A stretch of 7,631 nucleotides of DNA, from the IMG/VR virus record IMGVR_UViG_2695420456_000026; one strand, given 5' to 3'. Made by a program: the position numbers and the translations under genes. Origin of the DNA: a virus. Taxonomy: Duplodnaviria; Heunggongvirae; Uroviricota; Caudoviricetes. Positions within the stretch are counted from its first letter, which is position 1, and each line of letters begins with the position of its first letter. This document shows, in pieces, positions 670 to 7,631 of the stretch. The notes beneath the pieces were generated by a model, which was given only the letters and a program-made list of their open reading frames with translations, did no database searches and was not told the origin of the DNA.

Positions 670-769
670 CACCACGGGCGAGAATAATCATGATTCAGTT
701 CGGGTAAAATATGCCGATCCGGTCAGCGAACAACGTGGAACAACCACGAACAAATAATTTACAAAACAT

Positions 770-800: not shown

Positions 801-1073
801 TTATCTGTCCTGGTAATTTCGCCATATTTCATCACCAGCACCATCCATACCCATTTCGGCATAAGTGCGATCGACCGCCTTTTTCAGGTCTCCGTAATTA
901 TCCGGCGGCTCCGGTGGCCTCTGTGCCTTCCTGGAACATTCCAGCCGTCGCATCGTGATGTGATGCCGTTCCTTGTCTGTCTCCACCAGTTGCATGACTT
1001 CACCCCATCGCGCCGACGCTCTCCGGTAAAAGCCTTTCGCCTCCAGTTCTTCCGCTATGCGGTCATGTACCAT
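801..1073 (-). CDS. Small regulator-like protein, 90 aa, possibly PerC-family (motif ...AEELEAKGFYRRASARWGEVM...RRLEC...).
   Basis: ATG at 1073 preceded by GGGGTGGGGA; the track ORF starts at a GTG (1082). Stop TAA 803..801. The PerC resemblance is a recollection of the KGLWRRAA-type motif and is unverified. Confidence 0.45.
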   Translation of the reverse strand: MVHDRIAEELEAKGFYRRASARWGEVMQLVETDKERHHITMRRLECSRKAQRPPEPPDNYGDLKKAVDRTYAEMGMDGAGDEIWRNYQDR

Positions 1074-1085
1074 CGTCCCCACCCC

Positions 1086-4652: not shown

Positions 4653-4854
4653 AAAGCATCCCCTGAATATTCGTGTTAATCATTCCGGCACGTTTTGTGA
4701 TTTCCTGTAATGATTCCCTTGTGGCGACAATTGCTTCATCTGGTAAGTGGTAATTACACACCACGCGACCTTTATCCACATTGACCAGTAGCTGCCCTGT
4801 GAATTTCTCACGAAACTGAATGCGGTTAAGGTCAGTAAGTGACAGATTAATCAT
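4642..4854 (-). CDS. Hypothetical protein, about 70 aa (MINLSLTDLNRIQFREKFTGQLLVNVDKGRVVCNYHLPDEAIV...).
   Basis: Preferred start is the ATG at 4854 with SD GGAGG 6 nt upstream; the longer track start at 4896 has no such support. Confidence 0.55.
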   Translation of the reverse strand: MINLSLTDLNRIQFREKFTGQLLVNVDKGRVVCNYHLPDEAIVATRESLQEITKRAGMINTNIQGMLYAQ

Positions 4855-5044
4855 GGCGCACCTCCTGACGAATACGGGCGGCAAATACAGCAACACAACC
4901 GGACGGGCAACGGTTACGCGCTTCGCGTTCCGTCCAGGCGGTTACGTGGATGATTTGAGATTCTCCGGCACTCAGTGCCAGAAAACGCCACACAAAGGCC
5001 GTTTGTGTGTGTACAAGGTGTGGTATATGATTTACGGCAACCAT
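4847..5044 (-). CDS. Small Cys/His-containing protein, 65 aa (MVAVNHIPHLVHTQTAFVWRF...RNRCPSGCVAVFAARIRQEVRHD); candidate first gene of the operon.
   Basis: It is the 3' end of the 314-aa track ORF, but only this part has a strong SD (AGGAG, 5-nt spacer) before an ATG (5044); stop TAA overlaps the next start by 8 nt (ATGATTAA). Confidence 0.45.
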   Translation of the reverse strand: MVAVNHIPHLVHTQTAFVWRFLALSAGESQIIHVTAWTEREARNRCPSGCVAVFAARIRQEVRHD

Positions 5045-5106
5045 AACGGCTCCTAGTTTACGTTGTTGGTTAGACGCCCCGTATGTGTTCCCAGCACTGC
5101 GGGGCG

Positions 5107-5177
5107 TTGATTTTTGTGTAATGGCAAGTACAATGGTAATTACCATGTAGGTATAGCAATAAAGGGTAATTACCATG
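5107..5177 (+). promoter_or_regulatory. Candidate sigma70 promoter (TTGATT 5107-5112, 16-bp spacer, TACAAT 5129-5134) with two operator-like copies of the perfect palindrome GGTAATTACC (5135-5144 and 5165-5174; shared 12-mer GGTAATTACCAT).
   Basis: Palindromes are 30 bp centre-to-centre; the first overlaps the -10/start region, the second ends at the RHH start codon. The divergent operon must also initiate in this 5045-5175 interval. Confidence 0.55.
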
Positions 5178-5348
5178 TCAACACCATTAGAAAAACGTTC
5201 GCCTCCATACCAAATGCGATTACCGGAAGACTTCAGAGCGCAGCTAGAAGAAGCAGCTAAGGCCGATGGCGACACATCTTTAGCCACTTGGATTAAACGC
5301 GTTCTCCGCAAAGAATTACAGCAACGCGGCATAGAACCCAAAGGATAA
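5175..5348 (+). CDS. Arc/MetJ-type ribbon-helix-helix DNA-binding protein, 57 aa (MSTPLEKRSPPYQMRLPEDFRAQLEEAAKADGDTSLATWIKRVLRKELQQRGIEPKG).
   Basis: Absent from the ORF track (under 60 aa); read by hand. The xRLPxEL...A...G.S.N..I pattern is typical of the Arc family; the palindromic operators overlap its own promoter and start. Confidence 0.7.
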   Translation: MSTPLEKRSPPYQMRLPEDFRAQLEEAAKADGDTSLATWIKRVLRKELQQRGIEPKG

Positions 5349-5405
5349 AAACTATCAGCGCCGTGGTGTGAGGTATTACGGCGCATTGCTATGCAGGACA
5401 ACACA

Positions 5406-5579
5406 ATGACCGATAAAGAATTGACCAAAACATTATCACCGGCACGGAAAAGACGGCGCAGAAAGATAGAGCATGAATCAGAAAGATTCGCGCCATGTGC
5501 TTTTGCCCTTGAGCAATTCCTTAAAGAGTACAGGGAAACGCGCCCATTGCAGGTATGGCAACGAACTGAACCAGACTGA
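5406..5579 (+). CDS. Possible small basic protein, 57 aa (MTDKELTKTLSPARKRRRRKIEHESERFAPCAFALEQFLKEYRETRPLQVWQRTEPD).
   Basis: ATG at 5406 with AGGA about 8 nt upstream (track ORF starts at the in-frame ATG 5391); lies between the RHH gene and the terminator on the same strand. No family recognised. Confidence 0.35.
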   Translation: MTDKELTKTLSPARKRRRRKIEHESERFAPCAFALEQFLKEYRETRPLQVWQRTEPD

Positions 5580-5673
5580 TAGCATTGCCCACCAGCCTGA
5601 TAGCGGCTATCATCCCCGTGCTTATGTTTGGGATCATATACACATAAGGCGCAGCGGGTTATCTGTTCAGAAA

Positions 5674-5702
5674 GGCGGCTCCATTTCGGGGCCGCTTTTT
5701 TT
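5674..5702 (+). terminator. Rho-independent terminator: GGCGGCTCC-ATTTC-GGGGCCGC followed by seven T.
   Basis: 8-bp GC-rich stem (one G-U pair), 5-nt loop, T-run 5696-5702; closes the plus-strand RHH cassette. Weaker in the opposite direction (only TTT). Confidence 0.75.
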
Positions 5703-5848
5703 ATGCCTGAAAAACCCCAATTTTGTGGTTTTCCAGTCTCACCAGGGCGAACGAATCCCCGCCCACGTTCTGGCGTATATTCAATCTTCATGGTTATAGC
5801 TCTGTGTTCAGATGATTGATGTGTGGCGGCTGTGTGCCGCCAGCGTGA

Positions 5849-6037
5849 TTAATGAACTGCCTTGCAGCTATCCTTCCAGGCCAGAACCTCGGATAAAAAC
5901 CAGCCAACGGAACGACCGCCAAGTTTACGACGTGATGGGAATTGTCCGGCCTTTTCCAGGCGGTAGCGACACGTACGGCTAAGGCCGGTTAGTTTTTCGC
6001 ATTCTTTTTCACGTATAAACCGATCAGTGCTTAACAC
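5849..6037 (-). CDS. alpA: AlpA-family phage regulatory protein (MerR-like HTH; Xis/Vis-like), 62 aa.
   Basis: ...ECEKLTGLSRTCRYRLEKAGQFPSRRKLGGRSVGWFLSEVLAW is the typical AlpA HTH block; GTG start at 6037 with AGGGGG 5 nt upstream; located just downstream of int. Confidence 0.85.
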   Translation of the reverse strand: MLSTDRFIREKECEKLTGLSRTCRYRLEKAGQFPSRRKLGGRSVGWFLSEVLAWKDSCKAVH

Positions 6038-6309
6038 TATTGCCCCCTTTCGTTTCTTAAAGAGTCATCAGGTGTCTTATTGTGTCGTATTGTTCCCGCT
6101 AGAGTGATGAATGGCAAATACTGAGGATGTATGATTTACAGAAAATGAAAAAGTAAGAATAAAATCTTTTAAATTCATGTTAATACAAAGGCATAAAATA
6201 TTGTTCCATGCCTTTTTTCTCGCTCTTTAAAGAGTGATTCGCTAGTGTATAAAAAACCAGTAACACATTAAAAATCAGCTACTTATAAATCCGTACGCTT
6301 TTTCGCCTC

Positions 6310-6362
6310 TTGTTCGTAGTTGTTCCACATTGTTGCTCATTGTTGCACGTTGTATCTGTTCG
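6310..6362. repeat. Five to six phased 10-bp tandem repeats, TTGTT(C/G)C-like (TTGTTCGTAG, TTGTTCCACA, TTGTTGCTCA, TTGTTGCACG, TTGTATCTGTTCG), between the int 3' end and alpA.
   Basis: Exact 10-bp periodicity read from the sequence; phasing places every copy on one face of the helix, which suggests a protein-binding array. Confidence 0.5.
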
Positions 6363-6368
6363 CATATC

Positions 6369-6384
6369 CAGTATGCGCATACTG
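6369..6384. promoter_or_regulatory. Perfect 16-bp palindrome CAGTATGCGCATACTG, 18 bp downstream of the int stop codon.
   Basis: Self-complementary over all 16 positions; no T-run follows on either strand, so more likely a dimer binding site than a terminator. Confidence 0.4.
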
Positions 6385-6401: not shown

Positions 6402-7631
6402 TTATTTTCTTCTGGCTACTGGTAGCGTGGTTACGTTTTCATGTGTTCCCGCCAGTATCCCTAACCGCTCCGTCCACATATCCAGCGCATTGCGTTTCGC
6501 ATCCAGATAACGGGAATGATTATAAACTCGCTGCATTCCTGGCATCTGGTGGCCTGTAAGCTGCTCCACGACATGCGGATCAACGCCTAAATCGTTCAGC
6601 ATGGTTGTAAAGGTGCGCCGGATGTCATGCAGTGACCAGTGAGGGTGATTAAGCCTCCTGTGCGCTAATCTTCCATACTGCGATACGCTGGCCTCCTGTT
6701 TCACTTCCCCCAGCAATAAGCCCGTGTGCCTGTTCTGCTCCACCAGCTGCGTGATGAACGGCAGTATTGCTTCCGGTATAGGCCGGAATATGGCTACCTT
6801 CGTTTTGCTGTGCTCCTTCGGAACGGTCCAGAGCATTTCGGTAAAATCCCACTCGCTGATCTCCGATAACCTCAGTTCTACCGTCCGGCATCCGAACACA
6901 ATCAGGAGGCGGATTAACGCGATGTAGTAGGGGGAGAATATTTTTTTGTCCAGTGCCTGCAATAATTCGCCCAGTTCTTTGGTGCTTAAGACACGCTCGC
7001 TTATATCCGGTTTTTTCCCAACGTCCGCCACACTCATATCATCAAGAACGTTGCTGATTGCATAGCGCCGCCTCCGGCAGAACTTAAGCGCCTGTTTGCA
7101 CGTCTGTAGCAAGAATCCGGCAGTAACAGGCGTTCGCTTTGCCACCTGGTCAAAACAGGCCAGCCAGTGCCGTAGCTCGCATTTATCCAGCGGCATAGCA
7201 CCAATGTGCTGTATTACGTGATTATTAAGGCGCTTTTTCAGGGCGGCATAATCCACGCGGTTTTCCTTTGCGTACGACTCAAGCCAGTAGGTGAGCGCAT
7301 CGCCAACCGTTACCGGCTTTAACGCTTCCTGTACGGTGTAATTAAGCTCATGACGTGGATTTTTCCCCTCTGCCAGCCATGCGCGACACTGGGCGGCTTT
7401 TTCCCTGGCTGATTTCAGGCTCAGATCAGGATAATTTCCCAGCTTAATGCGTTCCGGTGGTGCCCCCCTTCCCGTTCCGGCCCTGTAAGTGAAATACCAG
7501 GTTAAAAGGCCACTGGTTGAATGCCTGACGCTCAGGTTTCCACCGTCATTAAGAAAGGCTGTTTTTTGGGCGGGTGTGCCGTTGATTTTCCTCAGCTGTG
7601 TATCGCTCAGTTTGTTAAGTGCTCTGCTCAT
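6402..7631 (-). CDS. int: Tyrosine recombinase, P4-family phage integrase with N-terminal arm-binding domain, 409 aa.
   Basis: N-terminal ...GNLSVRHSTSGLLTWYFTYR... arm-binding block; catalytic-domain residues in ...HDIRRTF... and ...VYNHSRYLD... (candidate Tyr). ATG is the last three bases of the window, so the true start or att site may lie beyond it. Confidence 0.9.
   Translation of the reverse strand: MSRALNKLSDTQLRKINGTPAQKTAFLNDGGNLSVRHSTSGLLTWYFTYRAGTGRGAPPERIKLGNYPDLSLKSAREKAAQCRAWLAEGKNPRHELNYTVQEALKPVTVGDALTYWLESYAKENRVDYAALKKRLNNHVIQHIGAMPLDKCELRHWLACFDQVAKRTPVTAGFLLQTCKQALKFCRRRRYAISNVLDDMSVADVGKKPDISERVLSTKELGELLQALDKKIFSPYYIALIRLLIVFGCRTVELRLSEISEWDFTEMLWTVPKEHSKTKVAIFRPIPEAILPFITQLVEQNRHTGLLLGEVKQEASVSQYGRLAHRRLNHPHWSLHDIRRTFTTMLNDLGVDPHVVEQLTGHQMPGMQRVYNHSRYLDAKRNALDMWTERLGILAGTHENVTTLPVARRK

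Follow-up and report, generated by a model that had tools for sequence, protein, structure and literature searches.

Recombination directionality factors recognize direct repeats set one helix turn apart, bind them cooperatively and bend the DNA, and several of these proteins also act as regulators. The Apl protein of coliphage 186 has five sites at att and seven at pR-pL. RdfS of ICEMlSym R7A binds attP and its own promoter without a clear consensus motif, and TorI of KplE1, whose sites lie on attL only, represses intS. In P4, the Vis protein is said to promote excision and to regulate late promoters. In Gram-negative PICIs and cf-PICIs (phage-inducible chromosomal islands and their capsid-forming kind) the master switch is AlpA. 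Induction of both EcCICFT073 and EcCIEDL933 depends on it, and it is an activator of its own promoter; in EcCICFT073 it activates a PalpA reporter. In the searchable literature we found no description of AlpA binding sites in PICIs and no definition of a cis-acting site for the protein. A different element, a doubled motif in attP, was reported as unique to helper-embedded PICIs (HE-PICIs), and its binder was left open (Mageeney et al. 2023; PMC10111431). Here we describe a cf-PICI and its relatives in which both kinds of element can be told apart, and in which 10-bp phased repeat arrays are predicted to be the operators of AlpA.

Results

The island and its relatives

The window, that is, the whole stretch of 7,631 nucleotides that was analysed, represents a cf-PICI related to EcCIEDL933, an E. 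coli phage satellite. Every gene lies on the minus strand. The landmarks needed below are as follows.

7631..6402, minus strand: int, P4-family tyrosine integrase of 409 aa with Arm-DNA-bind_3 (PF13356) and Phage_integrase (PF00589) domains
6037..5849, minus strand: alpA, 62 aa; PF05930, 61.5 bits
3660..2260, minus strand: RepA-type helicase
1082..801, minus strand: PerC
794-777: perC terminator

The remaining genes comprise several small ORFs, a DUF4222 protein, SSB and the start of a head-protein gene. The domain matches listed above bear out the identities first given to int and alpA. AlpA is a small winged-helix protein of the excisionase/transcriptional-regulator family; the product matches phrog_2790 ("excisionase and transcriptional regulator") and PDB 8c3t (AlpA family), an entry for which our literature search found no paper. 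The int start codon falls at the window edge and, as judged from the island boundaries relative to the empty K-12 site, the P arm of att lies just past 7631. Copies of the int-alpA region with 99.8% identity are found in genomes of E. coli O157:H7; there phoQ and roxA border the island, which extends further into genes for capsid, decoration and small-terminase proteins. A search of genome contigs with the integrase returned, among the matches listed, only a Shigella copy and an unrelated MAG. For comparison we used 61 related copies (5 E. coli genomes, 55 IMG/VR contigs and the window; individual loci are cited by L numbers), which hold 36 distinct versions of the first 130 bp past the int stop. 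In the CFT073 copy, L007, alpA and the int-alpA spacer are 74.6% identical to those of the window; L007 can be equated with EcCICFT073, since the primer sequences of Fillol-Salom et al. (2018) map onto it.

Two observations on gene content may be recorded here. An extra gene of about 264 aa lies between int and alpA in L172 (17459-18253) and past int in L160 and L068, and the N-terminus of its product resembles an excisionase-type HTH (YYTLPMAAKKLGCTVDDILHLGA). In the window, a 314-aa ORF (5791..4847) has a C-terminus that matches "transcriptional repressor" PHROGs of phages; in L001 the corresponding ORF bears a pseudogene annotation. Inside the ORF of the window, the segment 5120-5178 holds a 14-bp palindrome-like sequence (ATGGTAATTACCAT, 5133-5146), a one-mismatch version 30 bp away (AGGGTAATTACCAT, 5163-5176) and a weaker third copy; these copies look like operators.

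A phased repeat array downstream of int

The region between int and alpA contains two features close to the int stop codon.

6310..6359, minus strand: array A, five direct-repeat units with an exact 10-bp period; predicted AlpA operator array
6369-6384: perfect 16-bp palindrome, CAGTATGCGCATACTG, made up of CAGTATGC and GCATACTG, 17 bp past the int stop

Array A begins 43 bp downstream of the int stop codon and so lies between int and alpA, as was stated originally. On the plus strand its units read TTGTTCGTAG (6310), TTGTTCCACA (6320), TTGTTGCTCA (6330), TTGTTGCACG (6340) and TTGTATCTGT (6350), which amounts to four perfect TTGTT (6310, 6320, 6330 and 6340) and one TTGTA (6350). The original prediction had spoken of five to six TTGTT-type repeats in exact helical phase. 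Five units at exactly 10 bp stand; the would-be sixth at 6360 (TCGCA) is not a unit. Tandem Repeats Finder marks 6320-6353 as a tract with a period of 10, and the phasing is beyond chance: in 300 first-order Markov simulations of the window, no chain of five TTGT or four TTGTT with one period of 9-12 bp arose (0/300), the longest chain being 3.

Read on the coding (minus) strand, the unit has the consensus G-R-A-ACAA-Y-G-W. Over 193 units from the 36 versions, the ACAA core carries 1.8-2.0 bits per position and the six other positions 0.3-1.1 bits. All the versions have 5 or 6 unit slots in exact 10-bp phase, related islands having 5-7 units, and copy number changes in 10-bp steps, L056 having gained exactly one unit. 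As judged from these alignments, a near-invariant core combined with variable linkers and 10-bp steps is the pattern of selected, phased protein contacts, and shared ancestry alone would not give it.

A λ CII-type site was considered at 6333-6346 (TTGC-N6-TTGC) and rejected: the motif is lost in the L002, L003 and L007 versions and has no -10 at the right distance. As a separate observation, in the F2 family (L069-L092, L009) the first 80 nt past the int stop hold a long inverted repeat, AAATCGTCGAATATCGGCAAATATCGACGATTT, which replaces the post-int array and may be a different operator in the same position.

The palindrome exists as first described, except that it starts 9 bp past the end of the fifth unit and does not follow the array immediately. 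A perfect 16-bp palindrome turned up somewhere in 7.6 kb in 57 of 400 simulations, or about 14% of random sequences, so that chance alone could account for this one. Nor does it behave as a conserved element. It is confined to the window-like lineage. Many related islands (the L002, L007, L008 and L021 to L067 types, including L021/L059-type spacers) have the array without it, and unrelated sequence or one more repeat unit takes its place there; in six loci it is mutated, always on one side only. The region folds no better than shuffles as RNA (z = 0.34), and Rfam gives no match there. An intrinsic terminator was rejected, as no U-run follows the palindrome on either strand and a terminator scan finds nothing at this place; the hairpin has a T-run ahead of it when read on the minus strand and an A-run behind it when read on the plus strand. 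The palindrome is lineage-specific, finds no support as a functional element and is not a terminator.

The int-alpA spacer and the alpA promoter

Closer to alpA, two further features were recognized.

6117-6089, minus strand: predicted sigma-70 alpA promoter, TTGCCA, 17-nt spacer, AACAAT (consensus match only)
6072..6096, minus strand: proximal mini-array, two to three ACAA-type units with a 10-bp period, GGAACAATACGACACAATAAGACAC

The -35 hexamer of this promoter is conserved across related loci. In 60 of the 61 it stands 196-200 bp downstream of the last unit of array A, the distance from promoter to start codon being variable. Such constant spacing hints at a phase-dependent interaction, for example a DNA loop that joins the distal to the proximal array, or a bend. 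The mini-array overlaps the -10/+1 region of the predicted promoter; it shows as a period of 10 over 6072-6093 in Tandem Repeats Finder, has TTGT at 6080 and 6090 and is kept in L144 and L158. No conserved sigma-70 promoter was seen directly downstream of array A when the alignments of related loci were inspected by eye.

The PalpA-lacZ fusion of EcCICFT073, as placed by mapping the primers of Fillol-Salom et al. (2018) on L007, runs from the 3' end of int into alpA and thus holds the whole spacer, with a six-unit array homologous to array A. The AlpA response of this reporter makes the proposed part of array A in regulating the alpA promoter plausible; it is a property of the whole spacer and does not single out the array. 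The primers of the Pint reporter from the same study were not located in the CFT073 locus.

Other sequences in the spacer deserve mention. At 6187-6220 a hairpin (AAAGGCAT ... ATGCCTTT) with a T-run behind it lies on the plus strand, antisense to the island genes; in L002 the stem has a different sequence, but the T-run is preserved. The hairpin resembles a terminator that would end plus-strand transcripts arriving from ylcI/ynfO-like genes, which lie downstream of alpA in other islands. Two CTCTTTAAAGAG-type palindromes, at 6223-6234 and 6056-6065, stand 170 bp apart, both in conserved blocks, and are flanked by a 19-nt repeat that is 79% identical between them.

The same unit at the attachment-site arms and before the head genes

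The original prediction had suggested looking for the repeat in the att-proximal region beyond 7631. It is there: complete island copies carry arrays on both att arms. The island ends are fixed at an 8-bp core, ATATGTCC, by comparison of an O157 copy with the empty K-12 site. On both arms, and in the same orientation, ACTACACC-ATTA-ACTACACC is followed 18 bp on by three to four phased ACAA units. The P-arm array, between the int start and the core, reads TACAACGTGAAACAAGCTGGAACAA, and the P'-arm array at the far end of the island reads AACAACGTGGAACAAATAGACACAA; the 18-bp distance from the doubled motif holds on both arms in L005, L008 and L172 (outside the window). A fourth array is found inside the window.

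725..754, minus strand: array C, three units, TTGTTCGTGG TTGTTCCACG TTGTTCGCTG, inverted relative to array A

Array C is flanked by the perC terminator on one side and the head-gene operon on the other. It accounts for the best inverted repeat of the window (6310-6334 against 729-753; 25 nt, 92% complementary) and holds the window's only three AACAA, 10 bp apart. At least 25 related loci have it, including L083 and L092 of the F2 family, with a divergent AlpA type. In 707 kb of related loci, which leave the P' arm outside, chains of at least three ACAA/TTGT units at exactly 10 bp occur almost only as array A, in the P arm and as array C; three further chains are found, in L067, L078 and L081. 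On this evidence, array A is a real, selected, phased array, predicted to bind protein, and belongs to a set of four sites. The interval from array C to the start of the head genes also holds, at 604-651, an inverted repeat whose 17-nt arms are 94% complementary and enclose a 14-nt loop; no U-run comes after it.

A separate doubled motif varies with the integrase clade

The doubled motif beside the att-arm arrays was located at the following positions.

L005, 9448-9468 and 20425-20445: ACTACACC pairs
L172, 16183-16206 and 27531-27554: GTGTGGTCAGT pairs
L293, about 2226-2250 and 2459-2482: TGTATAAACA pairs
P4 (L010), 80-103 and 288-311: GGGGGCAT pairs

Elements with F1 (window-like) and F2 (L009-like) integrases, which are 77-100% identical, share the motif ACTACACC. 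With the F3 integrase (66% identical) it becomes GTGTGGTCAGT-T-GTGTGGTCAGT, a form that the complete island L172 carries at either end, over a distance of 11 kb. A Klebsiella element with a 50%-identical integrase has TGTATAAACA pairs, the P4 attP has GGGGGCAT pairs, and in HE-PICIs TGTATTGC pairs stand at distances of about 81 and 132 bp from the centre of attP. Throughout these clades the pair spacing is 12 bp and one pair lies just upstream of int; here the motif stands at about +79 and -132 to -152 from the attP centre. P4 Int (24% identical) is too distant for direct transfer, and therefore only its attP architecture was compared. Because the motif changes sequence with the integrase clade, as it does in P4 and HE-PICIs, it is probably the arm-type site of the integrase. 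As far as such comparisons can tell, four half-sites covarying with the integrase match the needs of an integrase tetramer with its arm-binding domains.

The 10-bp arrays behave differently and are unchanged across F1, F2 and F3 integrases (66-100% identity). They are also kept both with the RepA-type helicase (found in the window, L001 and L008) and with the primase family (found in L002-L004, L007 and L009). If the doubled motif accounts for the arm-binding domains of the integrase, the 10-bp arrays are left for another protein.

Arrays and AlpA types

CGAACAA-type arrays occur in all islands whose AlpA combines the RTxRY helix with the GGRSVGW wing. The int-alpA spacer of the F2 family shows no homology to that of the window, yet has its own three-unit CGAAC array in exact 10-bp phase about 130 bp upstream of alpA, with three divergent versions of the sequence. 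No such arrays are present in HE-PICIs, where the recognition helix and wing of AlpA are different. The Klebsiella element, with another AlpA type, has TTGTT motifs near the doubled motif that are not 10-bp phased. Among the islands compared we found no AlpA variant accompanied by a clearly changed motif. This co-occurrence of array and AlpA type is partly trivial, since the array is physically linked to alpA.

Discussion

AlpA as the predicted binder

We propose that the phased arrays are operators for AlpA, which would act as excisionase and activator at once in the manner of 186 Apl or P4 Vis, and we put the probability of this reading at about 0.6. The binder is assigned by elimination and by analogy. 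Array A is read as an AlpA operator because directionality factors bind helical-turn repeats and in several cases are also regulators, and because AlpA activates its own promoter. The original prediction had named either AlpA or the integrase; of the two, AlpA is favoured, and the integrase is disfavoured because the separate doubled motif tracks its clade.

One could envision the following arrangement. Each G-R-A-ACAA unit would take one AlpA monomer, so that array A would offer five head-to-tail sites for the island's own AlpA, all on one face of the helix since they are exactly 10 bp apart. Binding may be cooperative and bend the DNA, as described for other recombination directionality factors. 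From the att-arm arrays, next to the integrase arm sites, AlpA would direct excision; from array A, in the int-alpA spacer, it would mediate the known positive autoregulation of alpA; and from array C (725-753), upstream of the head/packaging operon, it may turn on the late genes. Activation from about 200 bp upstream might be brought about by looping to the mini-array, by DNA bending or by relief of silencing in the 30% GC spacer.

Several points speak against the assignment to AlpA. A distance of about 196 bp from array A to the nearest conserved -35 is far for a simple activator. Arrays A and C stand in opposite orientations relative to the operons they precede. The sites of directionality factors usually occupy one att arm only, whereas these arrays occupy both. 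Furthermore, AlpA was reported to have no effect on Pint in EcCICFT073, yet the P-arm array lies upstream of int. The unphased TTGTT motifs near the doubled motif of the Klebsiella element, present with another AlpA type, count against it as well.

Alternative readings

That the arrays bind some other factor, be it a host nucleoid or response-regulator protein, the DUF4222 protein or a helper-phage inducer of alpA, strikes us as unlikely. The case for it draws on several facts. Helper phages activate alpA transcription, and the reporter used to see this contained the array. Regulators of the OmpR/PhoB family bind direct repeats of 10-11 bp, and the tor boxes, which we take to read CTGTTCATAT, resemble the 10-bp unit. 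The small DUF4222 protein is present in every island examined and makes an alternative candidate binder. However, the placement of arrays on both arms beside integrase sites points to an accessory recombination protein encoded by the element itself, the arrays are absent from HE-PICIs of the same hosts, and nothing positively links any of these factors to the motif. For sites of a host TorR/OmpR-type regulator in particular, the resemblance found no support, and we rejected them.

It is quite unlikely, in our estimation, that the arrays are arm-type sites for the N-terminal domain of the integrase, with array A as an extra cluster serving int autoregulation or blocking read-through into alpA. 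The integrase does have an Arm-DNA-bind_3 domain, and the arrays are on both att arms, as arm-type sites are. In λ, for example, the tandem arm sites P'1-P'3 likewise follow each other at about one turn. L009, in addition, keeps the P-arm array together with a 79%-identical Int N-domain and has lost the post-int array. Against this stands the doubled motif, with four half-sites at fixed positions round the core on both arms, covarying with the integrase clade and matching the architecture of P4 and HE-PICIs, while the 10-bp arrays remain the same with integrases as little as 66% identical. Moreover, an array before the head genes and, in the F2 family, one upstream of alpA make little sense for an integrase.

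There is a slim chance that array A, or all the phased arrays, is the docking site at which a helper-phage factor switches on alpA. If this were true, the array would be a cis-acting sensor coupling satellite induction to helper infection, and more than a site of AlpA autoregulation.

We regard it as very improbable that the repeats are a neutral product of slippage and the palindrome an int terminator or an mRNA-stabilising hairpin. Copy number does vary by whole units and the palindrome does lie just past the int stop; but the core stays invariant over 36 versions while the linkers diverge, the unit recurs at three other, non-homologous places, and the terminator half of the proposal meets a palindrome with no U-run, no terminator-scan match, a fold no better than shuffles and a patchy presence among islands.

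Hardly credible, finally, is a replication origin made of array A and the AT-rich spacer, with iterons bound by Rep and array C in the role of P4 crr: two inverted arrays do flank the replication module, the spacer is 30-37% GC and the unit resembles what we presume to be the P4 type I iteron, TGTTCACC, but this iteron/ori-crr reading is rejected because the array persists unchanged with unrelated replication proteins (RepA-type helicase or primase family) and because the PICI origin lies downstream of rep (an EcCICFT073 clone of rep with the ori downstream of it replicates alone, and origins of GN-PICIs lie downstream of pri), and the arrays are also on the att arms. The window has separate repeats at 2050-2261, in a 450-bp gap just downstream of repA, consisting of three copies of TTTTNCNCCTCACTTTT 83-85 bp apart plus an inverted copy, and these are a candidate replication origin.

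What the arrays may mean

Should the AlpA reading be right, excision, expression of the capsid genes and amplification of AlpA itself would all be coupled through one small protein. The concrete outcome is a unit, G-R-A-ACAA at 10 bp, and a map of four sites (the two att arms, upstream of alpA, and the late operon), together with the predicted separation of two att-arm elements, the doubled motif for the integrase and the arrays for AlpA. The doubled-motif result generalizes a motif that had been reported as unique to HE-PICIs and noted there without an assigned binder (PMC10111431). Elements of this kind are well known, and the analysis refines PICI biology without adding a new category; what is new is the predicted map of AlpA arrays, not previously drawn for these satellites.

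Comparison with known systems

Like the sites of 186 Apl, and the Cox boxes of P2 and HP1, the arrays consist of short direct repeats about one helical turn apart, present at att as well as in a regulatory region. Unlike them, they are found on each of the two att arms, precede a late operon and, upstream of alpA, lie about 200 bp away from its promoter. Apl and Cox, besides, repress the promoters that they bind, whereas the AlpA of PICIs is an activator and belongs to another family (PF05930).

The likeness to P4 goes further. Vis is an AlpA-family homologue working beside a P4-family integrase, and the P4 attP has doubled, 12-bp-spaced repeats on both arms with short 10-bp phased units between the int-proximal pair and the core. 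In P4 these units form two clusters of TCC, the unit here being of the ACAA type. Vis reportedly binds the part of attP in which the TCC clusters lie, and we infer from their sequence that they could be Vis boxes I and II. It is also said to repress Pint and late promoters, whereas AlpA activates.

With the doubled attP motif of HE-PICIs (PMC10111431) the ACTACACC-N4-ACTACACC pairs have in common that they form two co-oriented tandem pairs. Unlike what that report stated, doubled motifs in clade-specific form also accompany further integrase clades among PICIs, and P4 has one too. Nor does that report describe the 10-bp arrays, which form a second element of their own. In RdfS and TorI, lastly, one finds the same combination that we propose for AlpA, namely winged-helix directionality factors that bind attP or attL as well as a promoter, and thereby couple excision with transcription.
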